The translations under genes were made by a program, and so were the position numbers. A stretch of DNA of 64,000 bases from a virus: positions 1-64,000 of IMG/VR virus record IMGVR_UViG_3300036766_000359; one strand, 5' to 3'. Below are positions 8,592 through 47,251 of this stretch, piece after piece (position 1 is the first letter of the stretch; the number at the start of each line of letters is the position of its first letter). The notes beneath the pieces were generated by a model that was not told where the DNA came from, did not search any database, and worked only from the letters and a program-made list of their open reading frames with translations.

Positions 8592-9401
8592 TTACCGATA
8601 AAGGTTTTCCATATCTTTCATGGTCTTGGATATCCACTCTGAAAGAATTTCTGGAATTTCCGTATCTTTAACTTTTTCAAATCGAGCCATAGCACGATTA
8701 CCAGACTTGTAGTGAGGTATACCAAGGTCAGGACCGCCTGAAACAGGGTTTCCGCCGAGAGTCCAAACCGCATCTTCGGTACTACCGTCCGATGCAATAT
8801 CTCCTTGACCGATAAGTTCCCCATATGGAGTTTCAGCGACAATGCGAAAACTTCCGTAGCTACGTTCATCACCTGGGTCCCACGTAAACTCTTTGATAGT
8901 AACATCATTACTAATGGCAGCTAGAACGCTGCGAATGTCAGAAACCACAAGATCCTTTACCGGAGAATCAGAGTTATCAATCTTACTAGCGATTTTCCGA
9001 AGCATAGCAGACATCTCAAATGGTTTCTTCATAGCCACATTCTCCTGTTGAGTTACTTGTTCTTGCATAGAGGCGTTACGCCATTGGAATTCTATGTCTG
9101 AACCTTCACGGTCTTCCAGTTTATCAGCCCATTTACGGGCTTCAGCGTCATTCTTGAACGTCTTGGTCTTCCAACTACTTTTACCTGGAGTACGATAAGC
9201 TACTTCCACCGGCAGATTTTCATCAAAGCTAGCAGTTGACTTTCGAGAAACTGGTTCATTCATTCCGGTGGGTGCATGCCATTGAGCTTCTTCGCCATAT
9301 TCTTCGGCTGCTTCTTTAGTATCAAATGACCCTATCGTTTCGCCATCATCAAACTTCACGTACCAATTGTTTTCTTCATAAACTATGTAAGTACGAAGCA
9401 T
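8592..9401 (-). CDS. Hypothetical multi-module protein carrying the shared LRxIASKID module
   Basis: MSAMLRKIASKIDNSDSPVKDLVVSDIRSVLAAI matches modules in 35663-36709 and 46496-47251. Confidence 0.7.
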   Translation of the reverse strand: MLRTYIVYEENNWYVKFDDGETIGSFDTKEAAEEYGEEAQWHAPTGMNEPVSRKSTASFDENLPVEVAYRTPGKSSWKTKTFKNDAEARKWADKLEDREGSDIEFQWRNASMQEQVTQQENVAMKKPFEMSAMLRKIASKIDNSDSPVKDLVVSDIRSVLAAISNDVTIKEFTWDPGDERSYGSFRIVAETPYGELIGQGDIASDGSTEDAVWTLGGNPVSGGPDLGIPHYKSGNRAMARFEKVKDTEIPEILSEWISKTMKDMENLYR

Positions 9402-9425
9402 AATCTTCTCTTCTTTAGTGTTGAC

Positions 9426-9932
9426 CTAGCGAACTTCCTGGAGCTTAGAAATTGGGCGAATCAATTCACGCCCATCTTCGGTCCGAATTAGAGCACTTGG
9501 ACGTCCTTCCCAATTTTCCAGTCCAATTTTGAGAACTACAGCCTCTTTGTTATCTCCGTCCGTGTCACTAAACATAACTCTTGAGTCAACTTTACATCCA
9601 TTTGTAATTGTTTTAGATACTGCGTCATGAGCTTCATCCATCGAAGTAGAAAAACTGGACGAACCCTTATGTTTAAAGTATTCAACCTGCTTGAGACGAT
9701 CCTTTGCTTCACTCTTAGAGGGAAAACAACCACCAGACCAATCTGGGTTACCCTCAGATTTGACGCAATAACCTCCAGGAGTCTTCCGAATAATACTCTC
9801 TTTTTCCTGACTGACAGTGTCCTGACATTCTTCTTGGGAAACCATCTGTCGAGTCCCATAATCCGGTCTCTCAGAAAGGGGCTGAGACATACTGGAAGCT
9901 ATACGAGCGGCTATGACCAAATGTGAACTCAT
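9426..9932 (-). CDS. Hypothetical protein (candidate internal head protein)
   Basis: Likely start MSSHLVIAARIASS at 9932 avoids overlap with the divergent ligase; contains YCVKSE..GGCFPSKSEAKDRLKQVEYFKH and an SH3-like C-terminus. Confidence 0.65.
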   Translation of the reverse strand: MSSHLVIAARIASSMSQPLSERPDYGTRQMVSQEECQDTVSQEKESIIRKTPGGYCVKSEGNPDWSGGCFPSKSEAKDRLKQVEYFKHKGSSSFSTSMDEAHDAVSKTITNGCKVDSRVMFSDTDGDNKEAVVLKIGLENWEGRPSALIRTEDGRELIRPISKLQEVR

Positions 9933-9992
9933 GTAATGAATGATGACAAAAGGTCCAGTCGTAAATCTTGACGGGTGGTGGGTAGGGGTAAT

Positions 9993-10622
9993 ATGAATCA
10001 AATCACCCAATCATCACCCAAGTGGCATATGTTTCCTTTTAAGCCAATTCGGGTAACTGAGTCAGTATTTTCGTTCATAGATACATCTGAATACATTATG
10101 GAAAAAAAGTATGACGGATTTAGGGCAATTCTAATTGTCGACCAAACTCAAGAGTTGTGGACTAGAGAACATCGAAAAATTGAAGTACCAGACAATCTTC
10201 GGACACAGTTGTTAGAATTGAACCTTCCAAAAGGAACAGTTTTGGACGGAGAAATCTGGACTCCGACTAAGAGAGGGTCATGGCGTCATAATCGAACAGT
10301 CCAGTGCCATCTGACATTTTGGGACGTGATCCGGTCCGGAACGCAAGACATGAGTCGAGATCCTCTTGAAAAGAGGTTCGAAGAACTCATTAAACTTGTA
10401 GCCGGAAGGGTCCCGGAAATTTCAACGGTAGAACGTTTTCAGGCTAGTCTTGATGGATATCGAAGAATAGTAGAAGAAGCAAAGGCATTCAAAGCATCGA
10501 CACGTTCACGTTCCGGATTTATTCACGGAGCCGTCCTGAAACGACGTAATTCTCCACGCAGAGATCATTCAACGAGGTGTATCGAGCACTCCGACTGGAT
10601 GAAACTAGTGGTAGAACTTTGA
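9993..10622 (+). CDS. ATP-dependent ligase-family nucleotidyltransferase, adenylation domain only
   Basis: Motif I EKKYDGFRA, III LDGEI, IIIa FWDV, IV IHGAVLK, V WMKL; no OB domain. Confidence 0.8.
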   Translation: MNQITQSSPKWHMFPFKPIRVTESVFSFIDTSEYIMEKKYDGFRAILIVDQTQELWTREHRKIEVPDNLRTQLLELNLPKGTVLDGEIWTPTKRGSWRHNRTVQCHLTFWDVIRSGTQDMSRDPLEKRFEELIKLVAGRVPEISTVERFQASLDGYRRIVEEAKAFKASTRSRSGFIHGAVLKRRNSPRRDHSTRCIEHSDWMKLVVEL

Positions 10623-10638
10623 TGGATTGGGTTCAGCC
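10617..10638 (+). promoter_or_regulatory. Conserved gene-junction motif CTTTGATGGATTGGGTTCAGCC
   Basis: 20/22 identical to 46480-46501; 15/16 to 58606-58621 (minus). Confidence 0.5.
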
Positions 10639-10676
10639 TAATTAATAATTGAATTTTAAATTCTATGGTTTGATCG

Positions 10677-15632: not shown

Positions 15633-15678
15633 GACCCAACTCTACACTCGATTAATCGAATGAAAGAATTGGATAGTA

Positions 15679-16551
15679 TTATAACGTGGTTACTGAGTTT
15701 CTAACTGCATCATTATAACCAAGTTCAATCATTTGGTCGATTGAGCTTCTGTCGAAATCAAGTGAATTTACACTCAATTCTGATCCAGGTCGAATAACAC
15801 GGACTTTCACTTTTCGATATTCAATACCGCCAAGAGCTTCAGACAGTCTATTTTTCAACGAACAAATCTTTAAGTCATTTTCCATTATTTCTGTGGACAT
15901 CAAATCCAAAGCACGAATTGCGTATCCTGGAATTGCAGCCTGACCAACTGTTGACCAAGCTGCAGGCTTATCTGGAGCCGTAACAATAACGTCAATTTCA
16001 GTGGCTCCGCGCCGAATGGCTTCCCCGAGTGGAGTGATGTCACGAAGACCGCCATCGGTCCATAACTTTCCGCCGATCTTCACAGGAGAAAGCAGCGCAG
16101 GATATGCAGCTGAGGCAAGCACCCAGCTTACAATATCATCTGAAGTCTGGTCTGCCACAACATACTCGCCAGTTTCCCAACAAACCGCACCAACAACGAG
16201 TTGACGTCCGCTCGCACGAATCAATTTCGGATTTAGTGTCTTGTGTGCCCAATCCGACAAAGGTGAGGAGTTATATACCGAAGGTTTCCAGACCGACGCC
16301 ACTGCGCCAAACACAGGCCAACTCTTGCGGACTTTTTCGGTCGTCACACCCTCCCAAAACTCTTCGAGCTTCTTGAGGGCCATGAACGGCTGCCCTAGCA
16401 TCGTGGTGGACAGCACAGAGCAGTTCAACGCCCCAACGCTGACCCCGCAGAGCATATCATAATCCCGGCGGTCTTCACTCATCCATTTGGTAAGAACGCC
16501 AACTTGATAAGCTCCCTTAGAACCACCACCACTCAAAACAAGTGCTCTCAT
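15679..16551 (-). CDS. Patatin-like phospholipase
   Basis: LVLSGGGSKGAY oxyanion loop, GVSVG nucleophile, DGG catalytic Asp. Confidence 0.9.
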   Translation of the reverse strand: MRALVLSGGGSKGAYQVGVLTKWMSEDRRDYDMLCGVSVGALNCSVLSTTMLGQPFMALKKLEEFWEGVTTEKVRKSWPVFGAVASVWKPSVYNSSPLSDWAHKTLNPKLIRASGRQLVVGAVCWETGEYVVADQTSDDIVSWVLASAAYPALLSPVKIGGKLWTDGGLRDITPLGEAIRRGATEIDVIVTAPDKPAAWSTVGQAAIPGYAIRALDLMSTEIMENDLKICSLKNRLSEALGGIEYRKVKVRVIRPGSELSVNSLDFDRSSIDQMIELGYNDAVRNSVTTL

Positions 16552-17687
16552 GTTGCGCTCCTAACCACACAATAGAACGTCGCGACGGTGAAGTCCCCGC
16601 CCATGGGCATGTCATCTTCCAGCTTCACCCGTAGCTCGATGCCATACGCAGACAGCAACCGTCTGATCGTTCCGTACCGGAACTCAACAACGTGTTGGGG
16701 TTGAGCAAGTCCACGTACAGTCCCGCCCGCAGCCGGGATTGCGGATGGAACGAAACCCGACGCCTCTGCGGTCAACTGAGCCAGGGTCTTGTACGTAGTT
16801 GTCTGAATCGGGATCTTGGTGCCTTCAGGCAATCCAAGCTGCGGAGCAAACACAGCCGCGTAGCCCCACACTTGAAACTGCACAGAGTCGTTCATCACGA
16901 AATTGGCAGACCAAGCCGCTTTGGCTTTTTCGATGTCTACGTCTGTATCCACGTCAGGCACGATGTAAAACGTGCTGCCGTTTTCGTACGAGTAGCTGAC
17001 CAGCACGGTGTTACCTGCCTGGCTTGCCGCGAACACGATCTTGCCGTCCCCGTAGGCCACGGTGTAATCACCGCCCGAAGGCGCGAAAGCAGCGCGTTGC
17101 GTTTTCAGCACACCGTTCACGTGCACCACCACGGCGTAGCCATGTGGCGAGCCCTGATTCGCGATCTGTTGATCTAGGATGTAGGCATCCTCGTCAAAAA
17201 TCTTGCCGTGCGTAAGATCGATAAGCATGCCGTTGGCCAAGCTCCAACTGAGCCCGTCGCCATCATCGGTTGCTGCCTCGTCTTCTACACGTACAGAATC
17301 TCCGAACCACGTTGTCGGGTCACAGTAGTTGTGCGTGGCATAAATCACCTCGGTGCCAATGCGCGGTTCGCTTGATATCAGGGGAAGCTGATCAGAGTTT
17401 CTAGGAGGTTGAAGTCGCAAGTTGAACTTCGACTTGTAGCCTCCCTCAAACTCAGCCAAATCTTGGTCATTCTGTTCTTGCGAGTAGCCTCCCGCAATTA
17501 CCCCTGATGGAACCTCTCCTCTCCAGATCGTGCAAAGATGCACCTCTGGGTAATCGTATCCCCAAACTGTGTATGTACCTGGCGCTTCATCGAACTGTGC
17601 CACCAAGCTACGAGAAGCCAACACAGGCAACCACGTCGTCCAGACGTACGTACGTTGAGTCAAGAACGGTGCTAATCCTACTGACAT
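16548..17687 (-). CDS. Probable virion structural protein
   Basis: Beta-rich ~380 aa; start MSVGLAPF at 17687 with GAGAGGG upstream; inside the fibre gene cluster. Confidence 0.55.
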   Translation of the reverse strand: MSVGLAPFLTQRTYVWTTWLPVLASRSLVAQFDEAPGTYTVWGYDYPEVHLCTIWRGEVPSGVIAGGYSQEQNDQDLAEFEGGYKSKFNLRLQPPRNSDQLPLISSEPRIGTEVIYATHNYCDPTTWFGDSVRVEDEAATDDGDGLSWSLANGMLIDLTHGKIFDEDAYILDQQIANQGSPHGYAVVVHVNGVLKTQRAAFAPSGGDYTVAYGDGKIVFAASQAGNTVLVSYSYENGSTFYIVPDVDTDVDIEKAKAAWSANFVMNDSVQFQVWGYAAVFAPQLGLPEGTKIPIQTTTYKTLAQLTAEASGFVPSAIPAAGGTVRGLAQPQHVVEFRYGTIRRLLSAYGIELRVKLEDDMPMGGDFTVATFYCVVRSAT

Positions 17688-17697
17688 CTTAGCCCTC

Positions 17698-19239
17698 TCA
17701 CAGATCGTAAAAATCGAAAGCGCCACGATAGGTAATCGTGTTACCGGATGAGGAGATAACGTACATAAGCAACCTAGCAGGCCCAATTATGGCTATCGGT
17801 GTTCCGTAGACTCTGGGAGTCATGGACGAAGTGCCACCTTGCGAAATGAAATCGCTAGCTTGAAGTTCTGGCGCGTTCGCTACAGTAAATGCGAACTTCT
17901 TGATCAAGAACATGCTCGGAGCGGTAATTGCCGTTGAACTACTCCCCACGTAGGTCGCAGTAATGTAGCAAGTCTTACCTAGCGGAACATAGTGATGAGC
18001 CCAGAACGTCTGGTTATCAGTAGCAGCTATGGTGCCTACAGTAGTTCCAGCGCCGCCTGCTCCGGTCTTTAGCGTTATGATGCCTACGTTGGACCCTGTA
18101 GATCCAACTGTGACCACTTCCATCTTCTCGATGTAGCAGTGATCTAGGTTGACTAGATTTACAGCAGTTACTCCATTTAGAGTGACGGTTTCAGTAAACG
18201 GGCCTGCGCCTGTGGCGGAGTAATACGTTATCTTTACTGTTCTGGCCCCGGTGCCTGCGGCAGCATCACTTGCACTTGCAGAGACTATAGATCCAGTAAA
18301 GTTAGCTGACTGCTCCGTGTACGTAGTTCTGCGCACAGCAGATATAACAGCCGAGGTTAGTACAACATCGCCTGTCGATATGCCGCCGACGCCGTTCGAT
18401 GGAGTCGAAACCACGGTAATTGGGCTGTTTGGAGAAAATGCTACTACAAGAGCCGGATCAGTAGACACAGCTGCGGTAGACGGCCCTTTGACCGCCACAG
18501 GACCGTTTGTGCCATCCGTTAGGGCAACAAACCCACTACGAGCAACGGCATCCATCGCAGGCAAGTAGTTGCCTGCGTTGTCGGTGATCCTCTGGGCGTT
18601 TCCGACATAAATGACGTTGTTGTTCAGCGATTGAACCACGCGAACCGTTGCCGTGCCGGTCATCACAGCGATGGCACGAACACGGATATTGGTGTAGCCC
18701 GCGACGTTGGCCCCGCCCGCGAAGTTGGCCGTGAATGACGCATTGATGACATCGGTTCCGGCCAAATGGATTCGGCGGAGGTACCAAGTGGTTCCGCCGT
18801 CCTGCGATATCTCGACCTGCAAGGTTCCGGTCCATGTGCCGGTGACTTGCACCTGAACAGTCTCAAGCGACGAGACAGTAAATGCAGCGGCACTGCCCGC
18901 TGTAGGAGCGCCAGTGATAATCGACTGACCATTCGCTCCTACGGCAGTTGCCGATACGAGATCCCTGGTAGTGATGTTCTGCGTCGCTGGGGATACGTCT
19001 GCCGTAATGGTTGTTGTGACAGGGTTGTTTGGAGACAGCGACACGACAAGCGATGGGTCAGTGGCCACCGCAGCGGTGCTTGGAGCTTTCACCGTGACGA
19101 ACCGCGAGTTGGCCCCGTCTGACCCGGCAATAAGCAGCCCTCTGGTTCCAACGGGGGTCGCCACGCCGTTTTCGACAGACATTTCAACGCCGTTGGCGTC
19201 AAAAAGAATAACACGTTTCTGTATGGTCTCAGCAGCCAT
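17698..19239 (-). CDS. Probable virion fibre/beta-sandwich protein
   Basis: Ala/Thr/Gly/Val-rich 513 aa with an internal duplication (VKAPSTAAVATDPSLVVSLSPNNP / VKGPSTAAVSTDPALVVAFSPNSP). Confidence 0.65.
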   Translation of the reverse strand: MAAETIQKRVILFDANGVEMSVENGVATPVGTRGLLIAGSDGANSRFVTVKAPSTAAVATDPSLVVSLSPNNPVTTTITADVSPATQNITTRDLVSATAVGANGQSIITGAPTAGSAAAFTVSSLETVQVQVTGTWTGTLQVEISQDGGTTWYLRRIHLAGTDVINASFTANFAGGANVAGYTNIRVRAIAVMTGTATVRVVQSLNNNVIYVGNAQRITDNAGNYLPAMDAVARSGFVALTDGTNGPVAVKGPSTAAVSTDPALVVAFSPNSPITVVSTPSNGVGGISTGDVVLTSAVISAVRRTTYTEQSANFTGSIVSASASDAAAGTGARTVKITYYSATGAGPFTETVTLNGVTAVNLVNLDHCYIEKMEVVTVGSTGSNVGIITLKTGAGGAGTTVGTIAATDNQTFWAHHYVPLGKTCYITATYVGSSSTAITAPSMFLIKKFAFTVANAPELQASDFISQGGTSSMTPRVYGTPIAIIGPARLLMYVISSSGNTITYRGAFDFYDL

Positions 19240-19565
19240 TACGTCACCTCACACCCAAACAGATTAAAGCTGACGTTAGCGGTATCCGTATGAACTCGAA
19301 TCACATCAGTGGCTGCTAAAGCTATACCAATAGTGGCGGTAAATGAGTCACTTTTCAAAACAACAACATCATAATAAATATATTGCTTAGTAGCAAGTGC
19401 AGCACCAGCCACTGCCACACTAATTCGAAACTTGATAGAAGCAGCAGTTTGATTACACACGATGATCGTAGAAGCAGCGATACTCGTAGAAGCTGGAACT
19501 GCATATAAATCAGTTGTTGTGTTAGCAGCCGGTGCGGCCTGTCCAAGTACTTTTAGCGCCTCCAT
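19239..19565 (-). CDS. Small beta-sandwich structural protein following the collagen fibre gene
   Basis: LKVLGQAAPAANTTTDLY..SFNLFGCEVT; TAATG-coupled to the next gene. Confidence 0.65.
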   Translation of the reverse strand: MEALKVLGQAAPAANTTTDLYAVPASTSIAASTIIVCNQTAASIKFRISVAVAGAALATKQYIYYDVVVLKSDSFTATIGIALAATDVIRVHTDTANVSFNLFGCEVT

Positions 19566-19571
19566 GTTAGT

Positions 19572-22118
19572 CTAACCTCCCATTAACAAAAAATGTCTAC
19601 GCCAAGCTAAATCTACGAGTACAGGACCAGTGGCACCCTGTGGTCCTGTTGCTCCTGTTACTCCAGCTGGGCCTGTAGGTCCTGTGGGACCTGTAGGTCC
19701 TATGGAACCTGTGGGGCCCTGAGGACCTGTTGCTCCTGTTACACCATCAACACCTGTTGGGCCGATAGGACCAGTGGCACCCGTGACGCCCTGTGGACCC
19801 GTTTGGCCTTGCGGTCCTGTGGCACCAGTAACACCATCGACGCCAGTGGCACCTCGAGGTCCTGTTGAACCAGTTACACCCTGTGGCCCTGTTGCGCCTT
19901 GTGGACCCGTCGCACCCGTAACACCATCAATGCCTGTAGCGCCTTGCGGACCAGTTGCGCCTGTTACACCATCAATGCCTGTAGGACCGATCGATCCCGT
20001 TGGCCCTTGAGGGCCTGTTGCGCCTGTGACTCCGTCCGCACCAGTTGGTCCAATTTGACCCGTTGGTCCTTGTGGACCTGTCGCCCCTGTTACGCCATCT
20101 ACGCCCGTGGCTCCACGTGGACCAGTTGGGCCAGTGGCACCTGTTATGCCATCAATTCCTGTGGCACCACGTGGGCCCGTTGCTCCAATTTGACCAGTCG
20201 CACCTGTGACTCCATCAATTCCAGTGGGACCTTGCGGACCCGTCGCACCAGTTACGCCATTTGGTCCGGTGGCACCAGTAACGCCATCTATTCCAGTAGC
20301 ACCCTGTGGTCCTGTGGCTCCTGTTACACCAGTAGAACCAGCACCACCAACAGTAAAGATGGAGAAGTTACCATCAATAAGTGTGAAATCAGCAGTTCCG
20401 CCAGGGCATCCGATAAGAGATGAAGAAACACGAATGTCAACAATGTCACCAGGACTAAGAGACTCGATGCTGGTGGTTATTGTAACGAAATCACTATTGA
20501 GCGTGTCCGCTTGCGAAACAGATGCGTCTTGTTCTAGAATGCCATTTATAAAGACTGCGAATTTCAGTGATGTTGATGTTGATGTCTTATATGACATCGA
20601 CACGGCGATGGCGTAAACGCCACCCATGATCGCCGTGATGTTTGAGTTAGCAACGCTTGGAATCGTGAAGCTTGATAAATCGGTCGTTGTCCATTGATTG
20701 ATGAGATAAAACGCGTTCGGAACGCTCATCGTAAAAAACGATGAGCCGTTATAAACATAGAGTTCGCCGTAAGCACTAAGAAGGCCTGCGGGTCCAGTAG
20801 GACCAAAAACACCAGTAGCTCCCTGAGGTCCGGTGAAGCCCGTGGCTCCACGTGGACCAGTTGGGCCAGTGGTACCTGTTACGCCGTCAATTCCTGTGGC
20901 ACCACGTGGGCCCGTGACGCCCTGAGGTCCAATAGATCCGGTTGGTCCCGTGACCCCCGTTACACCATCAATTCCTGTTGCGCCTCGTTGTCCAGTAGGT
21001 CCCTGTGGACCAGTCGATCCTGTGGATCCGACTGAACCGGTAGGACCCGTGACTCCTGTAACGCCTTGCGGTCCTGTAACGCCTTGCGAACCGGTAGGTC
21101 CTTGCGAACCGGTAGGTCCAGTCGCGCCTTGAACACCAGTCGCGCCTTGAACACCAGTCGCTCCTCGTTGACCAGTTGGTCCTTGTGAACCAGTGGGACC
21201 GGTGGGACCAGTTGCTCCCGTAACGCCCTGCGGGCCGGTTATACCAATTGAGCCAGTAGGTCCTTGAGATCCAACCGGACCGGTAGGGCCAGTAGCACCT
21301 GTAACACCCTGTGGACCAGTTACACCTATCGAACCTGTAGGTCCTTGTCCACCCTGAATACCAGTAGAACCCTTAGGACCGGGAGAACCTGTGGGTCCCG
21401 TTGGGCCGGTCGGGCCCTGCGGACCTGTTGGACCAGCCGGTCCTTGAGGTCCTGTAAAACCAGGACCTGTTGCTCCCTGAGGTCCAGTTGGGCCAGTTGT
21501 ACCTACAGGACCAGTTGGGCCAGTGGGACCCTGAGGACCAGTGAAACCAGGACCTGTTGCTCCCTGAGGTCCAGTTGGACCAGTAGATCCAGTTACGCCT
21601 TGGACACCAGTTGGACCAATAGAACCAGTCGGGCCAGTCGGGCCAGTAGTTCCTTGGGCACCCGTGGGCCCAGTAAAACCAGGGCCAGTTGAACCCCTGG
21701 GTCCAGTGGGGCCAGTTGTACCAACCGGTCCGGTGGGTCCGAGAGGCCCCGTTGGACCTATTTGTCCTGTAGGACCGACAGAACCTGTAGGACCGACAGA
21801 ACCTGTGGGACCCGTTACACCCGTTACACCCTGTGAACCGGTCACCCCCTGTGAACCGGTCACCCCCTGTGAACCGGTAGGTCCCTTAGGGCCAGTAGCA
21901 CCTTGAATGCCAGTAGCACCTTGAATGCCAGTAGCACCTTGTGGACCGGTCGAGCCTACAGGACCAGTAGACCCACGAGGACCGGTCGCACCCTGCGGAC
22001 CCGTAGCACCGGTTGAACCAACACCGGTTGGACCAGTCGGACCCATAGGTCCAGTAGGACCTGTTGGACCTGTAGGACCGAGTTTGCTACGTGAGCCACG
22101 AGGGTTCTCAATCGACAT
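19572..22118 (-). CDS. Collagen-like fibre protein (GXT repeats) with a central C1q/BclA-CTD-like globular domain
   Basis: Two long G-X-[TQ] tracts (GPT, GAT, GVT, GPQ) flanking a ~150-aa beta domain; ends in FLLMGG. Confidence 0.9.
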
Positions 22119-22122
22119 TGGT

Positions 22123-23331
22123 TCACGAAGTGGATGCCGTCAGGGTAATCCCAATAGTCCCAGGGGATCCTGGAACACCACCTTCTGCTGCAAGAAGTCT
22201 TACTGTGGTGGCTCCCCCAGGGACAGACACCTCAATCATGAAGCCCACAGGATTGCTGTTTGGTGGAACCGGACCATCTAACTCTTGTAAAAACAGGTTC
22301 TGATCCGAAAATTGGTTATTGGTAGTGAAATCAGCGTCAAGAAGCGTTTCCTGGGTTTCTTCAGTTCCATTGCCCCACATAATACGTAGTGATGCGTAAC
22401 CACCGGGAGCACCGTTAGAGTATGTGACATAGAACGTGATATGACGAACACGTTTTGGAATGATGTAATTCGATTGATTAGTGAAGTTTCCAAGTAACGG
22501 AAGAGATCCAGTCGGGATATGAATCGTTCGAGGGATCTCAAAACCACAGCATTCAGGGGCCGGAGCAGGAGATGGGCCAGGAACTGGACCCGGAAAAATT
22601 GGAGGGCAATTGTTCACGATAATCACCTCCGGATGACATCGAACAGGAGAACTCGAGCAACTGTTGTCGTAAATAAGAACGACATACGGCGAAGCGGGAC
22701 AGACGACACTGAATCGCATCTCTGCTGCTTGCACCGGAGAATTCGGGTCTTGTTGATACTCCCATAAAATTGTGTAGTCGCCAGATCCAACCATGACAGA
22801 CCACTGTGCATAGTATTCACCGACAGTAAAACGCGTTGCTGCTGATTTCGGAGATACAATTCTACCCGTAGCATCCAGGATAGTCCAGAACACGAACGCG
22901 TCTTTAGGATATCCAGACCCGTCTTTAAGAAATAACGGTAGACCACCACGACCGAGCGCAGACCCGGTGAGAAAAGTCCCGAAACCACTAACAGGGATGG
23001 CGTTACCGGACGGAGGCAAACATGTTGAATAACTAGAAGGATCAACGACAAAGAAACCTTCACAAGTTTGATCAACACGGCCCCCGGAAACTTCTTGAAT
23101 TTCCCAGGTGATTCGATAACTTCCGTTCCTAACATCTGTTTGCCATGGAGCGTAATACTCACCACAAAGTGCTCGAATCGCCGGTAGAGACTTACCAGAA
23201 ACTTGTTGCCCATTCGCTGCACGAACAGTCCATCGAACAGAAAAGGCATCTTGAGGATACCCATTCTGATTGCTAAGATAAAGTCTTAGTTCACCTCTAG
23301 TGAGTTGTTGACGAACAAGAAATGCAGCCAT
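22123..23331 (-). CDS. Structural protein with two tandem Ig-like domains and a C-terminal beta domain
   Basis: Two repeats with GYP[QK]DAF..GEYYA..G[SD]Y.I.WE, homologous to the N-terminus of 7677-8573; Pro/Cys-rich linker. Confidence 0.65.
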
Positions 23332-23404
23332 GCAACAACTCCCTCATATAAGCGAGTTATCAAGTTTTCTTTGCCTCAAACGGGATCCATGTCTTCCATA
23401 AAGA

Positions 23405-23815: not shown

Positions 23816-23844
23816 GCATAAAATCCTATTTATTATGTAGTGGG

Positions 23845-35662: not shown

Positions 35663-36709
35663 ATGACCACGATGAGCACAATAGCATCAAGAGTTGCAGG
35701 TCGCATCATTGCAATGGAACAAAAAACTGCCCTTGACCTGGCAAATCTTATTCAAAGTGTCATAAGTAGTAGTAGTGGTATAAACTGGGGATGGGATATA
35801 CGTACTACAGAAGAACTTCCAAGTTTCGGGTTCCATGAAAAGAAATTTTCATTTCCAGGAAGACCTGGAATTTTCGATGCCGAAGGTCTTCTCGGAGGCA
35901 TTCATGTAGAAGGTAAACTTTCAGGTGATCCAGCACCAAATACTTCCGTAACTGCCAACTTAACGGGAGCATACTACAACAAAAATAAACATGGAGGAGG
36001 AGATTTATCTAGACATCAAAATATGGGGACGTTTGAAATAGAATTCGATCAAAACGGAATGCCTTCGTTTACTAAAGGGCAGGACACAACAAAAATAAAC
36101 AGCACTTTACAGTCAATAATAAATGGTGTAGTATCTAGTCCACCAGACAATGCTAAGTCTACTTCAAAAATAGTCCTCAAACGATTAGATAAACAAAAAC
36201 AATTAAATGAGATGAACACGAGAGAAGAGGAGAAGAGAAGAGGGATCCAGGATGAAAATATCGATACACACGGAACTATCGAACATTTCGTTGAACATAT
36301 AAAGTCAGAAAATGATGGCGTTTTTGGTCCTCGTGACCTGAATAGACTTAGTGAAATTTTGAATTTGACACAAAAGATAAAGCCAAACAAGAAAACGCTA
36401 CAAGAAGAACTACGCAAAGTAGATCTGGTTTATAATCCAGATAAAATGACGGTCTCTTCTAAACCTTCTGATATTGCAAACGATATTCGTCTTGTTGCTC
36501 TTAGAATCGATTCGTCAACACGACCATCAAGGTCCAAGATAGCTGCCGAAATTCGAGGCATAATAGCCTCCATAAAAGGCCCCCAAACTAGTCCGGAAGA
36601 TGAATTCTCCGATGACGAGGAATACATCCGTGAGCAACAAGAAAACGAGATGATGGGAGACTACGATGATCGCAATCAAAGCGATGATCCTCCCGTACGT
36701 CCATACTGA
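35663..36709 (+). CDS. Hypothetical protein with N-terminal IASRVA motif and C-terminal RIDSS module
   Basis: MSTIASRVAGRIIAMEQKTA; DIANDIRLVALRIDSSTRPSRSKIAAEIRGIIASI; acidic tail. Confidence 0.7.
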   Translation: MTTMSTIASRVAGRIIAMEQKTALDLANLIQSVISSSSGINWGWDIRTTEELPSFGFHEKKFSFPGRPGIFDAEGLLGGIHVEGKLSGDPAPNTSVTANLTGAYYNKNKHGGGDLSRHQNMGTFEIEFDQNGMPSFTKGQDTTKINSTLQSIINGVVSSPPDNAKSTSKIVLKRLDKQKQLNEMNTREEEKRRGIQDENIDTHGTIEHFVEHIKSENDGVFGPRDLNRLSEILNLTQKIKPNKKTLQEELRKVDLVYNPDKMTVSSKPSDIANDIRLVALRIDSSTRPSRSKIAAEIRGIIASIKGPQTSPEDEFSDDEEYIREQQENEMMGDYDDRNQSDDPPVRPY

Positions 36710-37541: not shown

Positions 37542-37543
37542 TG

Positions 37544-38251: not shown

Positions 38252-38253
38252 GA

Positions 38254-39840: not shown

Positions 39841-39869
39841 GTCTGAAAATACATTCAAACAGTGAATAC

Positions 39870-39910: not shown

Positions 39911-39931
39911 GGAACGAAACGTTAGTTAAGT

Positions 39932-40819
39932 TCAACGCGACACGATGAGACGAACCAGGCCGCGTGGGTTGTACGCGCCGATACCGAGATTTTCGAACAT
40001 CGAGAATCCAATCGTACGTTCCTCGGGGTTGTCAGCCGACAATACAGTCAATTCCGTACGGACCGGAATACGACCGAAGTGCTCGGGCTCGCAGCAGCAG
40101 TAGACAACGCCCTTCGGGACGAGACGGCTAACGATGAACTGAGCATTCCAGCCCGTGCTCATCATGCCGGTCTTCCACAGCGTCGCCTGCGACTCGATGT
40201 CCAGCACGTCACGACCGAACTTGCGGATGTCCGCGTAGTCCGTCGCATTCATGTAGACGCGAGCAACTCGGAGGTCGTGCGCTTCAATCTCAGCAAACGC
40301 GTCCGCGAGGACGGCAGGCGAGATGGGAGCTACCACCGGGATGTCAGGGTTCGTTCCGCCCGGAAGCGAATCGAATCCGTTCACCGCGATTGCGTCCATG
40401 ATTGAGAAAACGCGATCGTCTTCTGCAGCCTGAACCTGCGCCTTACCAAGGTCCTGCATACGCTTCAGGAGGTCGTAACGACGCTCCTTAATCTGCGTCA
40501 GCGGGGCCTTTGGCAGAGCCGCGATCTCGAAGAGCGGGAAAATCACGCGACGCGGCTTTGAAACCGCCGTGATCGACTCGCCTTCTTCACCGATGACGTA
40601 CGCAACGACATCGGGGTCCTTATCATAAATCGGAATCGCGCCATCAGGCAGCTGCTCGACCAAGAAGGTCTTACGACCAACGGACGAGTAGTCCCTGCGT
40701 TCGCGAAGCGACTGGATCATCGATGAAGCAAGACGACGACGGCCTGCGCCGGAACCGAGATACTTATCAACGATCTGTTCCTTGATCGAATTATCAACAA
40801 CTTTAACTCCAAAGCTCAT
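39932..40819 (-). CDS. Major capsid protein (HK97 fold)
   Basis: 295 aa, last gene of the portal-protease-scaffold-decoration block; LVEQLPDGAIPIYDKD, RVYMNATDYADIRK, GAYNPRGLVRL are typical of HK97-type MCPs; strong codon bias; AAAGGA Shine-Dalgarno. Confidence 0.85.
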   Translation of the reverse strand: MSFGVKVVDNSIKEQIVDKYLGSGAGRRRLASSMIQSLRERRDYSSVGRKTFLVEQLPDGAIPIYDKDPDVVAYVIGEEGESITAVSKPRRVIFPLFEIAALPKAPLTQIKERRYDLLKRMQDLGKAQVQAAEDDRVFSIMDAIAVNGFDSLPGGTNPDIPVVAPISPAVLADAFAEIEAHDLRVARVYMNATDYADIRKFGRDVLDIESQATLWKTGMMSTGWNAQFIVSRLVPKGVVYCCCEPEHFGRIPVRTELTVLSADNPEERTIGFSMFENLGIGAYNPRGLVRLIVSR

Positions 40820-40842
40820 GACTTTATCCTTTCTGTTCCTGC

Positions 40843-41508
40843 TCAGAAACTGAGAGCAAGGAACATCTCCGCGCTTGTCGCGTCTGGGGTTGAAAGGATA
40901 GTGCCCATGCGGGTCACGTCCGGCTCGATAGCAACGCCAGCAGCGCCACTACCCAAAGCAAACAGATTGATCCACTGTGCTTCGTACGAATCCTGCCAGC
41001 GATTGGTCAGAAGACCATTTGCCGACGCGTACAACAGATCACCGTTCTCGTAAACGAGAGCTGTTCCGACTACGCCGCCACCAACGGTGGTCTGGACCTG
41101 TGTTTCGTAAAGCTTGACGCCCACCGAACCACCGCGTAGGAACGGACCCTTGCCTGAAGCCACGCCAGGCGTGTTTTCAAACGCGTTGCCCAGGGCGTCA
41201 TTGATGAAGAGTCCGAGGGGACGGGTCTTCTTCACGAACGCCGAGCTAACAAGCGCTGCGCCGCCAGCCGTGTTCGGCCCGACGTCCGGGCGAGTGAAAG
41301 CAACCGAACCACCGAGAACGCCCTTCTTGACGTTCACAGGGATTGTGGTGCTCTTTGCCGAGGGCGTCGTAACGACACTCGGGTTGCTCTGCGTAAATCC
41401 ATCGGAGGCCAAGCTCGGAATCGAGTCCTTAACCAGCGAGTATAGGATACGCAGGGCAGAAGTACTCAAGCGAAAATCGCCCGAGGCCTGACCATTGATA
41501 TTTCCCAT
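40843..41508 (-). CDS. Probable capsid decoration/cement protein
   Basis: Directly upstream of the MCP with the same codon bias; RPLGLFINDA..GDLLYASANGLLT beta-rich pattern. Confidence 0.6.
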   Translation of the reverse strand: MGNINGQASGDFRLSTSALRILYSLVKDSIPSLASDGFTQSNPSVVTTPSAKSTTIPVNVKKGVLGGSVAFTRPDVGPNTAGGAALVSSAFVKKTRPLGLFINDALGNAFENTPGVASGKGPFLRGGSVGVKLYETQVQTTVGGGVVGTALVYENGDLLYASANGLLTNRWQDSYEAQWINLFALGSGAAGVAIEPDVTRMGTILSTPDATSAEMFLALSF

Positions 41509-41716
41509 TTACTGTTCCTTCCGCCGTAAATCTAACGTCTAACGTATCATCCAGTCCGTTTTCAGTTGCAGCTTCAGTTCAGTTGCCTGCGAAGCTATCC
41601 AACTTCATCTTTCTTTCAGAGCGCCTTGTTTTAGTATTTACGAGATAGTGCCTGTATGCGTATATTTATATATATTGATTATTAGGTAAAACCCTTACGG
41701 TATCAAACCTAATGAA

Positions 41717-42967
41717 TCAGGGTCTTTCCCAAAGGTTTTCAAGAACCTGGTCAACGCTCGGCTTGGCCGCCTTCTGCACAGAACCAAGCTTCTTGGCTCC
41801 GTTCTTCGTCGAAGCGACGTGACCGGTGAAACCACTTTCACGGTTGCGGGCTTCAAGCTGAGAAGACTGAATTTCACGTTGTGCGTGAACTTCCGGGTCG
41901 TCAGCAAAAAGGTCGTCAAGATCAGACGAAAGAACCGGCACACCCGATTCGTCATCGTCGTCGTCACTGAACGAAATGTCAGAGCCAGTGCCAGGAGCAC
42001 CGCCAGGAGCAGCAGAGAAAAGAGCCGAAAGGTCATCGGCTGGTGCTGCTGCACCTGGTGCTGCTGGTGCTGCTGGTGCTGCTGCTGCACCGGGCGCACA
42101 TTGATCACCAAGCATGGATTGAAGCATCTGCATCTCTTCAGGAGAGAGGTCATGCGCCTCTTGTTCCTGTTGAGAAGTGATTTCTTCTGCTTCCTCTGCT
42201 TCCTCTGCTTCCTCTTCCTGTTCTTGAGAGGTCTTACCCTCCTGCTCTTCCTGCTCTTCCTGTTCTTGAGAGGTCTTACCCTCCTGCTCTTCCTGCTCCT
42301 CTTCCTGCTCTTCTTCCTGAGCGACACGGGAAGCGGCAACAGTCTGAACAATAGCCTTGAGTGTCGGGTCGTCAATCGACATCATGACCGAACCCAGTTT
42401 CTCAACGTTCTTTGCATTTGCGCCGTCACCAAGCAAACGGGCAGCAAGCTTTGTGCATGCAAGCGCACGCTTAAACTTTGACTGTTCCGAAAGAGCATTG
42501 GGAGAAACGGAGTCGAGACGCTTCAACATAGCGATGATCGACTTGTTCGGGAGTGCCATAAAATCAGTGGCCGCACCCTCAATCAGATTCGTGTTTGAGG
42601 TGCGAAGAGTCGCACGAGCCAAACGCTCACAAGCCATGGCCTTACGTTCAGCCGAAACCTTGGCGTTGTCGTACTTACCCTTACCACCCCATTGGTCCGA
42701 GTCCTTGTGCTTCCATGTGTCATCACGGAATTCACCGAACCCGACGTCATTCCGTTTGACGGCATCGCCGTCATACTCATCCTTAACGGACATCTTTTCC
42801 GCCGGGACAGGGGTCTCCGCCCAGGAATCCGGGTTACCACTCTCATACTCAGTAGGAGATGGTTGGGGATGGTCCTGATTCATTGTATAGACATCAGACT
42901 TACGCGAAGTCGCCGCCTGACGCGGGGTCTCGCTTTTATTACTTTGCCAGGTGGATCGAGCTCGCAT
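41717..42967 (-). CDS. Probable capsid scaffolding protein
   Basis: Between protease and capsid genes; helical with an E/Q-rich tract and APAAPG linker. Confidence 0.65.
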   Translation of the reverse strand: MRARSTWQSNKSETPRQAATSRKSDVYTMNQDHPQPSPTEYESGNPDSWAETPVPAEKMSVKDEYDGDAVKRNDVGFGEFRDDTWKHKDSDQWGGKGKYDNAKVSAERKAMACERLARATLRTSNTNLIEGAATDFMALPNKSIIAMLKRLDSVSPNALSEQSKFKRALACTKLAARLLGDGANAKNVEKLGSVMMSIDDPTLKAIVQTVAASRVAQEEEQEEEQEEQEGKTSQEQEEQEEQEGKTSQEQEEEAEEAEEAEEITSQQEQEAHDLSPEEMQMLQSMLGDQCAPGAAAAPAAPAAPGAAAPADDLSALFSAAPGGAPGTGSDISFSDDDDDESGVPVLSSDLDDLFADDPEVHAQREIQSSQLEARNRESGFTGHVASTKNGAKKLGSVQKAAKPSVDQVLENLWERP

Positions 42968-43008
42968 ATTATAAAATGCCTCCTGAAGAACAACGGTTAA
43001 TGAGAAAC

Positions 43009-45759
43009 CTAAAAATTCGAGGCGGAGGCTATCCGCCCTTTCCAGATGAGGAATTTTTCCTCACCAACCGAGAGATCCCGTCCAAGCTTCATTTTGCAAC
43101 TGGCAAGAAACGAGGTTTTACTCGGGAAATTAGATATCGACCCAGTCTTCATTGCAGTTTTATAAAGATTGGGAGAGTAACTGTGTCCCCGAACGCGATC
43201 TTCGATCCATGAAAGGACTATCAAATCTTTCGAGGTCATCTTGGATGCTCGAACTGCCTTCGAACCGCCTTCATGAACTATGCGATAGTGTTTTGAGGCC
43301 CACTTGTGAATGTTTGGAGACTTAGGAAATGTCTTTCTAACACGACGGTCAAATTCATTCGATGAACGAACTATGTTATCGTTTCCACGCTCCAGAGAAG
43401 GAGCGACAATAGAACCAACGTCTTCAGGTTTAGGCTCGAGCTTCTCGCCTAGTTTATCAACCAAAATTGACAAAAGTTGTTCTTGGACCTTATCAAGCAT
43501 CTCGTCAAGTTTATCAGGCTTAGGTTGACCAGAATCTTGACCACCACCCTGATCCGCGCCCTGATCCTGATCCGCGCCCTGATCCGCGCCCTGATCCTGA
43601 TCCTGACCACCGCCCTGATCCTGACCCTCGCCCTGATCAAATAAACTGTCAAGATCCTGATCATCTTGATCTTCGCCTTGAGCAATTCGCGAAGCAGCCT
43701 TCTTCATGCCCTTCGGGAGAGGCTTTTCCGAACGAAGACTGTAAATTTTACGAGCTTCGTCGATGTTGGAAGCAACCTGAGTGCTGTCAGGATTAAGAAT
43801 GTTTCGACGAACTGCACCACGGAAAGCAGGATTACGAACCCACGATGCTTCGATAAATTGATTTGAATTCGGAACTGATGCATGGCCGATAAGTTCGGCC
43901 ACAGGATGTTCAATACCCTGTTCGTCTGCAAATTTTGTCCCTTTGCCAAGATAAAGGACACACGGACAGAGTTGAGCATCGTCTGATGCTACGTTCCCGC
44001 ATCTTGTACAAACAGTGAAAAGGGATATGCAATTAGAAACCCCAACACCATTCGCCACATATGAATGATCTTGATCAACCTGAAGGTCATACACAAACCC
44101 TGCATAGTCAGATCGATCAATTTTCTTAACTTCAGAATAAATATATTTATCGGTAATCCACCGGTTATTACGCCCAGCTTTGGTGGACCGAATTCCGCCG
44201 ATAGCCGAACGAACCTTCAAGGACGGAACTCGAACAACATCTGAGTTCCGGAGCTTGATTTGGTAATCAATCCCAGCGGCCTCAGGCAGCATTTTCGTGC
44301 CACTGCGTTCTGCAACTGAGAAAGTGGGAATGATGCCACATCGAGCTGCAATCTGCATGTATTGATGCGCGAGCTTTAAATTCCTAGTGCTAAGAAAAAC
44401 ATTCTTAGTCCCGCGCTTACTGGTCGAAACACACCCGTCCGAGTCTATAAGACCGGAAAGGAATGCCATTTGGTGGTCTTTCGGCCACGACATCACCGAT
44501 TTCCCGATGAGCTTATCAGATAATGTCCTTCCAGAAGTATGACGATCCACGATCGCCCGGAAGGAACGAGAGGTATTCATGAGGTATGACGCCCCACGTC
44601 TATTAGACACGGAAGTGCTCTGAGGCCGAGGAGCGTTACCTCCCATGGCAACATGGAGCTCTCGGTTCACCCAAGCAACTTGGTCTAACGCTTGAATCGC
44701 TTCCCGAACGATTTCGGGGTGAGACTCATCTAGGCAAAATCCAACACCAACCGTGGAGTCATGGTTGTTCTCGAACTTCCATCCATCTCCGATCCAAAGA
44801 CCAAGCAGACGAGCCTCTGATAGAGTTACATCAGACTGGACTTCGTCCTGTGAAATGGGGAAAGCGAGGAAGTCACCTTCCCGAATGGTCCGGGCTTCTG
44901 CATAGTCAAATGGATAATCCTTCTCCACGACATGGAGTTTAGAATTCTTTCCTCCACGACCTCGGGTCTTTTCCACAGTCTCGCAACGAATTATGTAATA
45001 GTTGTGATTGTCTGTTGAGGTAATGGGTGGAAGACCGACTGATTTAATGGTCCGGACTTTCCATCTATTTTCACGAATTTGAAGATTTTCGACCCGACAG
45101 GAGTTTCCCTTCTGAGTCAGAACCTCCATATTTGGACGAACATCTTCAATACCGATCGGACTACCGTCGGAGAGATACACCTGCGTTCCAGGAAGATGGC
45201 AGCCCATGCTCATTGCCGAAATGTCACCAGCAACAATGTCTGTTACAAGTTGCTGATGTTTACGATCTGTAGCAACAAGAATATCGATATAAGCTGATTT
45301 CCCAAGGTCACGAGCTATTGCATCAACAATAAAGCCTTTCGACAAGGCAGGAAGTTGAATATGCTCGAGATAATTGTGGGCTCCGATGAATGTCCGGTAG
45401 GTAGAAAGAAGAAGTGAGCGTTCCCAGGCATCCGAATTGTTGTTGATTATGTCGTGACATTCCGGCTTAATACGGAAGTCAGGCCAACGGACGTCGATTT
45501 GAACGCCCTGAACCATATTACGACCAATTTTGGCGTTCTTCGGGGCGTAGGTGTCAACAGACGCTACAATCGTGGCGTGCGACAAGAGATACTGCTTCGG
45601 ATCACATTTCCGAAGAACAGTTTTAGCAACGCGGTGAACATGGTCTCGGGGGACAGCACCCTCGTTTTGACCACGAAGTGTCTCCATCCACTCGTCAAAC
45701 TCAACGCCAGGTCGAGATACAATAGCGTTTGCGGTGCGTCGAAATCCCATTGCGTACAC
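43009..45759 (-). CDS. Prohead (maturation) protease with intein; spliced product ~526 aa
   Basis: AHNYLEH (His) and AMSMG|C (Ser nucleophile motif), then CTRC..CPC and FIEASWV..PAF, typical of HK97/assemblin-fold proteases; position between portal and scaffold. Confidence 0.8.
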   Translation of the reverse strand: MYAMGFRRTANAIVSRPGVEFDEWMETLRGQNEGAVPRDHVHRVAKTVLRKCDPKQYLLSHATIVASVDTYAPKNAKIGRNMVQGVQIDVRWPDFRIKPECHDIINNNSDAWERSLLLSTYRTFIGAHNYLEHIQLPALSKGFIVDAIARDLGKSAYIDILVATDRKHQQLVTDIVAGDISAMSMGCHLPGTQVYLSDGSPIGIEDVRPNMEVLTQKGNSCRVENLQIRENRWKVRTIKSVGLPPITSTDNHNYYIIRCETVEKTRGRGGKNSKLHVVEKDYPFDYAEARTIREGDFLAFPISQDEVQSDVTLSEARLLGLWIGDGWKFENNHDSTVGVGFCLDESHPEIVREAIQALDQVAWVNRELHVAMGGNAPRPQSTSVSNRRGASYLMNTSRSFRAIVDRHTSGRTLSDKLIGKSVMSWPKDHQMAFLSGLIDSDGCVSTSKRGTKNVFLSTRNLKLAHQYMQIAARCGIIPTFSVAERSGTKMLPEAAGIDYQIKLRNSDVVRVPSLKVRSAIGGIRSTKAGRNNRWITDKYIYSEVKKIDRSDYAGFVYDLQVDQDHSYVANGVGVSNCISLFTVCTRCGNVASDDAQLCPCVLYLGKGTKFADEQGIEHPVAELIGHASVPNSNQFIEASWVRNPAFRGAVRRNILNPDSTQVASNIDEARKIYSLRSEKPLPKGMKKAASRIAQGEDQDDQDLDSLFDQGEGQDQGGGQDQDQGADQGADQDQGADQGGGQDSGQPKPDKLDEMLDKVQEQLLSILVDKLGEKLEPKPEDVGSIVAPSLERGNDNIVRSSNEFDRRVRKTFPKSPNIHKWASKHYRIVHEGGSKAVRASKMTSKDLIVLSWIEDRVRGHSYSPNLYKTAMKTGSISNFPSKTSFLASCKMKLGRDLSVGEEKFLIWKGRIASASNF
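44032..45201 (-). mobile_element. Intein (390 aa) with LAGLIDADG endonuclease in the prohead protease
   Basis: Begins CHLPGT, ends DLQVDQDHSYVANGVGVSN followed by Cys; LLGLWIGDG and FLSGLIDSDG. Confidence 0.9.
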
Positions 45760-45814
45760 AACGGTCTAAAATAACTCTAAGAGAAGTAGGTAAACTCGGT
45801 GTAAATTTGGAGGG

Positions 45815-46477
45815 TTGAAGAGTATATGGTATATGCCCAATATCACAGAGTTTGGCTTAGAAGCCAGCGTTATCAAGGTCAAAATTATGAGTGACCCAGT
45901 AGAAGACGCAATACGGAATATCCGGGTTTCAGTAAAGATTATTCTATCAAAGTCTAGGGTTACTCCCAAAAACCCGGCGTCTGGACTATGGCCGAGAATA
46001 ACTCTGGAAAGTGTAGGGAAATCTCGTACAATCTCGTTAATGAATTATGAACACCCACTATCCTCTTCAGTCAAGGTAATCCGCGCACCTTCGCGGACCG
46101 CACCTTCGCGGACCCAGATGACATATCAGGATTTTACTGATATCCTTACTAAGGAAATCCTGGTCTTAACCAGCGGAAGTTCTAAAACAAGTCTGCGTTA
46201 TGGACGCGGAAATGCACTTGCACAAATAGTTATCAAAATCCGGAGAGCCGTATCTGGAGCCGTATCACGAGCCACCCGGTCAAAGAGTTCGGTGGCTAAG
46301 AGACGTGCGGCGGCAGTTCGGAAAAACAGGAAAGAAGAGTTCCTAGAAAAATTCCGGAAATTCTGTGATGATCATGGTCAAAAAGTTGAGTATGAAGACC
46401 TACGACCGTCAGATCTAGGAAAAGTCTGGGATGATGTCAGGCGAATGCGTGTTGCAGAAAAGATCATGGAATCTTAG
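45815..46477 (+). CDS. Hypothetical basic protein on the opposite strand
   Basis: 220 aa, K/R-rich; fills the gap between two minus-strand genes. Confidence 0.55.
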   Translation: MKSIWYMPNITEFGLEASVIKVKIMSDPVEDAIRNIRVSVKIILSKSRVTPKNPASGLWPRITLESVGKSRTISLMNYEHPLSSSVKVIRAPSRTAPSRTQMTYQDFTDILTKEILVLTSGSSKTSLRYGRGNALAQIVIKIRRAVSGAVSRATRSKSSVAKRRAAAVRKNRKEEFLEKFRKFCDDHGQKVEYEDLRPSDLGKVWDDVRRMRVAEKIMES

Positions 46478-46479
46478 AG

Positions 46480-46501
46480 CTTTTATGGATTGGGTTTAGC
46501 C
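46480..46501 (+). promoter_or_regulatory. Conserved gene-junction motif CTTTTATGGATTGGGTTTAGCC
   Basis: Second copy of the motif at 10617-10638. Confidence 0.5.
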
Positions 46502-47251
46502 TTCCGGGAAACCTACTGAAGCGATAATCCGATTCAAATCTCTCGCCACAAGATCTCGGTCGGGATTCTTTGAAGAATCAATCTTCGAAGCAATACGACG
46601 AAGTTGACTTGCGAGTTGTGACGGCTTCATATGAAGCACACTGGCTAATTTGGCCTTGATTTCTGAAGGCGCTTTCTTATTACGGGCTAACTCCTTACGA
46701 ACTTCTGCACTATCATCATCTGCTAATTTAGCCAAGATCTCTGGAGGCGTACTCGGATTACGGGCTACACGAGAACGAACACCCTCATCATCATCATCTG
46801 CTAGTTTAGCCAAGATCTCTGGAGGCGTACTCTCCGTACGGGCGACTTCGTAACGAACGAGCTTTTCGTCATCATCTGCTAGTTTAGCCAAGATCTTCGG
46901 GGGCGTATTCGGATTACGGGCGACATCGCAACGAATTGTTAATTCATCATCATCTGCTAATTTAGCCAAGATCTCTGGAGATGTATCCGGATCCCGGGCT
47001 TGTAGCGTTTTCTCGTGGAGGGCGTCCGAATCATCGTCAAGTTTTTTATTGTTGTCGTACTCCTTCTTCTTATTTTTCATCCAGTCAATGGGACCGGCGG
47101 TATTACCATTGGATTGTCCCTGGTCTTCCGGATCCATGGCCAACAAAACTCGACGTATATCCTTAATGACAAGACCTCGATCAGGATTCCGTGATGAATC
47201 GATCGCAGCAGCGATGCGACGAAGTTGACCGGCGAGTTGTGATGGTTTCAT
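46496..47251 (-). CDS. LRV/HEAT-like repeat protein flanked by duplicated MKPSQLA..IDSS modules
   Basis: 26-aa repeats (..TPPEILAKLADDD..VR..VA); N- and C-terminal ~38-aa direct repeats. Confidence 0.85.
   Translation of the reverse strand: MKPSQLAGQLRRIAAAIDSSRNPDRGLVIKDIRRVLLAMDPEDQGQSNGNTAGPIDWMKNKKKEYDNNKKLDDDSDALHEKTLQARDPDTSPEILAKLADDDELTIRCDVARNPNTPPKILAKLADDDEKLVRYEVARTESTPPEILAKLADDDDEGVRSRVARNPSTPPEILAKLADDDSAEVRKELARNKKAPSEIKAKLASVLHMKPSQLASQLRRIASKIDSSKNPDRDLVARDLNRIIASVGFPEG

Follow-up and report, generated by a model that had tools for sequence, protein, structure and literature searches.

Why should one short peptide recur in phage genes that are otherwise unrelated? The question is raised by a stretch of 64,000 nucleotides, here called the window, which spans the first 64 kb of a viral contig of 192,972 bp (IMG/VR record IMGVR_UViG_3300036766_000359; completeness about 45% according to CheckV). 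A sequence-only reading of this DNA had noticed four copies of a peptide of about 35 residues in three genes, and had proposed a portable tag for loading proteins into the capsid. All four peptide strings were located in the open reading frames (ORFs) given for them. The peptide, called the module below, is a new, widespread and strongly selected hairpin domain in one clade of huge phages with a capsid protein of the phage G type. The reading that we favor, with a probability of roughly one half and on the basis of structural models, is that the module is a portable handle for dimerization or docking that pairs with itself and is carried by small, mostly acidic proteins whose family has been shuffled by recombination.

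When all 3,510 six-frame ORFs of the contig were searched with a profile of the copies, six matches appeared in five ORFs, with E-values from 1e-11 to 1e-23. The next-best ORF (47309-47776) reached E = 0.34, so that the module matches stand far above chance. A related helix had also been reported in 47309-47776 and 49107-50573. Its strings are indeed present in both, but homology to the module is not borne out, given the E-value of 0.34 for the former and the absence of a profile match for the latter. For the 155-aa protein encoded by 47309-47776 only two homologues were found, too few for profile-profile comparison. Three of the six copies are internal or C-terminal, and two lie outside the window, at genome positions 119751-119873 and 120286-120408 (both on the minus strand), where each opens one of two adjacent small genes. 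The copies inside the window and the genes that bear them are the following, where LRV stands for leucine-rich repeat variant.

8592..9401, minus strand: gene with a weak DUF2188-like N-terminus, the module and an unrelated C-terminal domain.
8907..9029, minus strand: internal module copy in a 269-aa protein (profile E 5e-20).
35663..36709, plus strand: member of a module-bearing family of about 330 aa, with an N-terminal ASRVA motif; its orthologues lie near the capsid gene in relatives.
36458..36580, plus strand: divergent module copy near the C-terminus of a 348-aa protein, followed by an acidic tail (profile E 7e-18 to 8e-12).
46496..47251, minus strand: LRV-repeat gene (PF01816; 251 aa) with a module at both ends, in a variable slot between the Zn-ribbon and prohead protease genes.
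46508..46630, minus strand: module copy at the C-terminus of the LRV-repeat protein, which keeps its own Met and is followed by five residues (profile E about 5e-23).
47129..47251, minus strand: module copy at the N-terminus of the LRV-repeat protein (profile E about 1e-22; AlphaFold2 helices 3-19 and 25-39).

Outside the module, the three bearers in the window are mutually unrelated: one has the weak DUF2188-like region, one the LRV repeats, and one matches no family. The LRV part of 46496-47251 is assigned to PF01816 with E 3.6e-22 and 77.6 bits (cutoff 21.6) over four repeats. A relative, P0030, has the same architecture as the 8592-9401 protein, minus a 66-residue insert. When the modules of relatives were masked, 135 non-module parts fell into 102 BLAST groups, 86 of them singletons, which supports the view that the module is grafted onto otherwise mostly unrelated proteins. 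These non-module parts are acidic, with a median isoelectric point (pI) of 4.4 and 88% of them below pI 6. The only recognized Pfam domains that recur in 149 relatives are LRV or HEAT repeats; a match to Mu-like_Pro (E 7e-5) in the same set was not traceable to a protein and was left unused. Among the best 150 relatives, the module occupies only the first 40 residues in 121 and stands at each end in 10; the remainder have internal, C-terminal or other two-copy layouts, and altogether 29 have extra copies or other positions. The median length of these 150 proteins is 135 residues, and bearers mostly have 90-200.

A profile search of 1.84 billion cluster representatives gave 957 proteins at E ≤ 1e-3, of which 261 passed E ≤ 1e-10. 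The matches that were looked up came from metagenome assemblies and had no informative names, and one low-complexity oomycete protein among them was rejected as a spurious repeat match. No module was found in the 185,579 bacterial and archaeal species genomes of GTDB, and none in phage records searched with tblastn; nor does the uncultured 485-kb phage LR745208.1, with a capsid protein 74% identical to that of the window, contain one. Searches of this type are sensitive enough, since all six copies were recovered in the window's own genome. The module has thus been seen only in phage or metagenome DNA. All large relatives with a capsid protein at least 87% identical carry it, five complete genomes of 360-436 kb having three to eight copies each and one 72%-complete record having 10, and in the clade at about 75% capsid identity it is absent or gives weak matches only. 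Some metagenomic contigs contain tandem arrays, with five consecutive module genes in L008 and again in L013. A free-standing ORF of 46 residues that consists of one module only was seen in L003 (4522-4662) and L004 (8346-8486), flanked by homologues of window genes 27711-28607 and 26567-27613.

DNA identity among the copies of this genome is only 43-66%, and roughly half of the conserved residues are encoded by different codons from copy to copy. Over the 1,081 pairs formed by 47 distinct DNA copies, the median proportion of synonymous differences (pS) was 0.64 and that of nonsynonymous differences (pN) 0.17, with dN/dS around 0.18. The module peptide is under purifying selection. Since the peptide has been retained although synonymous sites are almost saturated, neither an RNA signal nor recent gene conversion explains the resemblance among copies.

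What is selected appears from the predicted fold and the pattern of conservation. AlphaFold2 models of the LRV protein and of a two-module mini-protein place a helix at residues 3-19, a turn at S20-K-N-P23 and a second helix at 25-39, with predicted local distance difference test (pLDDT) values of 70-83, so that the earlier description of the module as a helix-turn-helix agrees with the models. In an alignment of 168 copies, P3, A14 and P23 are (nearly) invariant, and L10, R11, I13, I17, S20 and V28 reach at least 90%. Conservation stops abruptly at position 39; positions 40-70 of the 168 copies are at background, no residue having a frequency above 0.19, and no cleavage motif follows the module. 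The peptide is strongly basic (median pI 10.9), with conserved Arg or Lys at positions 11, 12, 21, 25, 33 and 34, and an R-I-A-[SA] string lies inside helix 1.

Known families offer no counterpart. The module matched no Pfam or PHROG family, and a PDB sequence search gave no significant match. The best hit in that search was the de novo designed bundle sc-apCC-4 (E 0.15), the designed heptad EIAKQLKKIA of which resembles helix 1 (QLAsqLRrIA); the likeness is one of heptad pattern only and not of homology. With the two-module model as query, Foldseek returned nothing at E ≤ 0.001, and VIA-align returned generic helical bundles only (best Z 7.0, root-mean-square deviation 2.6 over 62 residues). 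Two bearers submitted to the ESM Atlas had no usable match.

The evidence for self-pairing, a possibility that the sequence-only reading did not raise, comes from complex prediction. Two copies of the module were modeled as a homodimer with an alignment of our own comprising 41 copies. The interaction prediction score from aligned errors (ipSAE) was 0.54, compared to 0.00 for the best control; three runs agreed in 100% of the contacts, and partner pLDDT was at least 83. For calibration, 20 of 30 proteins whose solved structure is a pair of one chain attain this mark, as does 1 of 23 whose solved structure is a single chain; the figures apply only roughly here because the alignment was our own. 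The predicted interface is symmetric and antiparallel, helix 1 packing against helix 1' around L10 and A14, and helix 2 against helix 2' around L32 and L36. Alignment columns in this interface carry 3.2 bits, versus 2.3 for the others (Mann-Whitney p = 0.0012), and of the 11 positions above 3.8 bits, nine are within it (P3, L10, R11, I13, A14, I17, S20, P23 and V28). Since the interface uses the most conserved residues, most of the conservation is explained without a further partner. Some proteins of 88-103 aa contain two modules joined by an Ala/Pro linker and no other part; one of them was modeled as four helices with a predicted template modeling score of 0.60.

The model supports self-pairing of the module, in which two basic hairpins of about 40 residues would form an antiparallel four-helix bundle and the handle would thereby gather varied domains into one assembly. 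Different bearers of one genome probably pair with each other as well, because the interface residues are nearly invariant among the paralogues of one genome. A comparable arrangement is known from the docking domains of protein kinase A RII-alpha and of DPY-30, which are helix-turn-helix units of about 40 residues, mostly N-terminal, that pair into a four-helix bundle. The module shares the size, the hairpin and the mostly N-terminal position, and its dimer is modeled as such a bundle, while Pfam RIIa or Dpy-30 matched no protein of the window (E ≤ 1) and none of the 149 relatives (E ≤ 1e-3).

Several points weigh against this reading. The dimer has been modeled rather than measured, pairing of short amphipathic hairpins is readily obtained in silico, and the tool warns that up to 19 of 100 single chains may reach the ipSAE mark. 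Residues of the hairpin core would stay conserved even if no dimer existed, and the interface list covers 23 of 41 positions. Conservation is likewise high at several polar residues outside the interface (K2, K21, N22 and D31), a hint of another partner. Furthermore, the dimer model is silent on what the assembly does.

The family has been shuffled by recombination, which is visible when related strains are compared. Over the length of the head-gene block, loci L006 and L031 have 97-100% identity to the window, yet they differ at the LRV locus, where two short features matter.

47252..47311, minus strand: in-frame leader of 19 codons (HSASTKTG..REWKAS) with a ribosome-binding site and the single TAA that ends the upstream gene.
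47309..47776, minus strand: head-block gene for a 155-aa protein in the same frame as the LRV gene, fused to the module in sister strains.

In L031, the 155-aa gene lacks its stop and reads through the leader into a module and a further domain. In L006 it also reads on without a stop (extension given as 302 aa), and the LRV protein of that strain has an extra domain of about 95 residues after the second module. The L006 DNA matches the window up to codon 13-14 of the module and then diverges. Loci L012, L021 and L025 have in common an N-terminal domain of about 380 residues and a module, which are followed by three different C-terminal domains, and in L040 another module gene takes up the slot between the Zn-ribbon and protease genes. 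Searches of 19 loci of the near clade with the LRV protein gave no match to its LRV part; only its modules match. Judged from these sequences, the crossover inside the module and the differing domains downstream of it, the module is the constant region at which cargo is exchanged.

Other features of these loci may be mentioned here. A gene for a GIY-YIG-type homing endonuclease (L006 3408-4436), 39% identical to window gene 3362-4306, directly follows the enlarged LRV gene of that strain; endonuclease-driven repair might help to move the cassettes. Stop-codon readthrough at the TAA between the 155-aa and LRV genes is conceivable in the present strain. The N-terminal region of about 380 residues, which also occurs in L003, gives weak ParB-like PHROG matches (E 0.005-0.01) and contains a TASRVAAKYL motif and a KKKKAS linker to the module.

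A constant N-terminal part with C-terminal domains diversified by recombination with cassettes, in tandem arrays, is typical of polymorphic toxins and of the MuF-type toxins of phage heads (PMC3482391, PMC12226406). The in-module crossover, the arrays and the 102 cargo groups resemble such systems. In contrast, the constant part here has 40 residues only, the cargo is small and acidic, and a MuF domain is absent. Pfam recognized no toxin or immunity family in the 149 bearers, which shows little because Pfam matched almost nothing in these proteins.

Where such an assembly might form is indicated by the genes nearby. The head genes form a block on the minus strand in the order terminase, portal, four small or coiled-coil genes, LRV gene, prohead protease, scaffold-like gene, decoration-like gene and capsid gene. 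Besides the LRV gene, its members are as follows.

55805-57754, minus strand: large terminase.
50604-55109, minus strand: portal with two inteins.
47309-50573, minus strand: four small or coiled-coil genes.
43009..45759, minus strand: prohead protease gene, interrupted by an intein and bounding the module slot; it matches the annotated head maturation protease of Tunturi_5 and phage G gp19.
41717-42967, minus strand: acidic scaffold-like gene.
40843-41508, minus strand: decoration-like gene.
39932..40819, minus strand: major capsid protein gene (phrog_2522, E 1.3e-44), the anchor of the positional analysis.

In addition to the 74% identity to LR745208.1 given above, the capsid protein shares 45% of its residues with its counterpart in Tunturiibacter phage Tunturi_5 and 36% with the one in Bacillus phage G. 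In 10 of 12 large module-positive records, a module gene lies at most 13 kb from the capsid gene, and 16 of 59 copies fall within this distance, versus about 9% expected, most of them just downstream on the same strand; these counts are not independent, because the genomes are related. About 70% of the copies are far from head genes, among small genes of unknown function. Given this linkage to head genes, the foremost candidate for the site of assembly is the prohead.

Two other features of the block can be noted. The portal-adjacent gene 49107-50573 (minus strand) encodes a 488-aa coiled-coil protein with an extremely basic Lys/Gly-rich tail; it was detected in 19 of 19 near-clade loci and in 1 of 8 far-clade loci, a phyletic pattern that is the closest to that of the module. 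Two islands of the window (16001-24000 and 40001-44000) have a GC content of 0.52-0.54, compared to 0.41-0.46 elsewhere, and the second coincides with the scaffold-like gene and part of the protease gene. A two-box promoter motif was looked for upstream of module genes and head genes and was absent from all those checked.

The position of the genes is also what gives weight to the capsid-loading tag of the sequence-only reading, which we regard as possible but less than likely. According to this explanation, it is the module that directs its bearer to the inside of the prohead, by way of the scaffold, the capsid protein, the portal or a module-bearing anchor, and the attached domains are packaged and injected. 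Self-pairing would fit into this picture if a single bearer residing in the head recruited the others. Apart from the near-capsid counts, the LRV cassette between the portal and protease genes, the different module gene at the same slot in L040 and the in-frame fusion of the 155-aa head-block gene to the module in sister strains are in its favor. The same holds for the conserved family of about 330 aa near the capsid gene. The protein 35663-36709 of this family has orthologues with a C-terminal module in L038 (74% identity), L075 and L076 (32%) and L063 (29%), and the domain order is swapped in L085. The restriction of the module to phage or metagenome DNA fits capsid loading as well, and proteomics of phage G particles reported many non-structural proteins in virions (bioRxiv 10.1101/2024.12.16.628780), which we count on the same side.

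Two well-studied head proteins allow a closer comparison. In phage P22, a C-terminal basic helix-turn-helix of the scaffolding protein, one dedicated protein, binds the coat. The module is likewise a small basic helix-turn-helix, as the AlphaFold2 hairpin and its pI indicate, which supports capsid loading, but it has no sequence relation to the P22 domain and is not confined to the C-terminus of a single protein. In phage T4, the capsid targeting sequence has about 10 residues, ends in a prohead-protease site and is removed, and the internal proteins IPII and IPIII, which are basic, sit in the DNA. On the other hand, the module is a folded hairpin of 40 residues, known here from sequences and predicted to self-pair. 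The lack of a conserved motif past residue 39, the internal and C-terminal copies and the two-module proteins without cargo make the proposed likeness to a T4-type targeting sequence a poor fit and argue against loading, as do the strongly acidic cargo, the large share of copies distant from head genes and the relatedness of the genomes behind the near-capsid counts. What the two systems do share is a conserved leader on otherwise diverse small proteins with polymorphic genes, some of the bearers here being in or beside the head block: the T-even internal proteins (IPI, IPII, IPIII and Alt in T4) are diverse except for a conserved targeting sequence, and their loci differ from one related phage to another (PMC3012670, citing Repoila et al. 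1994).

A number of short strings in the head proteins bear on how cargo could be released. Strings of the types [AS]SR[VI]A and G-R-[TI]-A-S occur at conserved positions in window genes 41717-42967, 43009-45759, 49107-50573, 35663-36709 and 9426-10010 and in loci L037-L116. The scaffold-like protein has one before its acidic run and one near the C-terminus (..GRTAS..GAKKLG in almost all orthologues), and the protease has WKGRIAS at its extreme C-terminus; R-[VIT]-A-[SQ] strings lie at conserved sites of the scaffold and protease orthologues. Herpesvirus assemblin cuts at Ala-Ser sites, and the recurring strings look like a cleavage code of this type. The family of about 330 aa starts with an [AS]SR[VI]A-type motif, which is a candidate protease site. 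As a lead only, the R-I-A-[SA] string of the module resembles the candidate sites of the scaffold and protease, and both strings have been counted in favor of capsid loading. An RRLAxS string of the capsid protein was considered as a mimic of module helix 1 or as a clade-specific cleavage site that accompanies the module, and was rejected; conservation of this string extends to all clades, Tunturi_5 and phage G included, so that it carries no signal.

A more specific proposal that combines docking and cleavage appears doubtful to us. In such a dock-and-load scheme, a head-resident bearer, either of the family of about 330 aa or a head-block fusion, would recruit other bearers into the prohead by module pairing, and an assemblin-like protease cutting after R-[VIT]-A would sever helix 1 between the Ala and Ser of R-I-A-S, freeing small acidic proteins for injection. 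In a wilder variant, the module dimer could be a reader of C-terminal helix tags on other small proteins of this phage. The sole convincing example of such a tag in the window is 45815-46477, which lies on the plus strand between the oppositely oriented protease and LRV genes, ends in ..VAEKIMES and has homologues at the same place in L038, L040 and L055. Only 2 of 150 module proteins carry the C-terminal helix tag, so that no systematic link between the two is apparent; these bearers, P0032 and P0034, end in a VMES-like tag (..EVNALMVHTS), and both tags are thus possible on one protein. A module bearer of L021 ends in ..NVLKTMIS, a near-match outside the tag pattern.

The module might instead be active itself: as a basic hairpin dimer it would bind either nucleic acid or a single conserved protein of host or phage, and the acidic domains would modulate this activity or add functions. 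The high pI, the conserved Arg and Lys residues and the conserved polar positions outside the predicted interface would fit such a role, and proteins consisting of modules only would be understandable if the module were functional by itself. However, among known folds and families that bind DNA or RNA none is similar to the module, a candidate target did not emerge, and the linkage to head genes would be left unexplained. We therefore judge this explanation to be quite unlikely.

That the module has no function at the protein level and is merely a shared 5' sequence kept by recent duplication, gene conversion or an mRNA or DNA signal (a translation or recombination site) is very improbable: the recombination inside the module, and the leader with its ribosome-binding site that was duplicated along with it in L031, would agree with this, but it is largely refuted by the substitution pattern, the divergence of the copies in DNA and the conservation of internal and C-terminal copies as well.

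Small ORFs without a known function make up most of the genes of huge phages, and at least 957 clusters of this kind are now tied together by one previously undescribed domain of 40 residues. Even as a plain dimerization domain, the module would be a new, compact and widely reused protein part that is worth a family entry. If the favored reading holds and the handle gathers its bearers into one assembly, especially the capsid, these proteins would constitute a large and exchangeable repertoire of candidates for injection by megaphages, and the module would provide a short tag with which foreign proteins could be loaded into large capsids.

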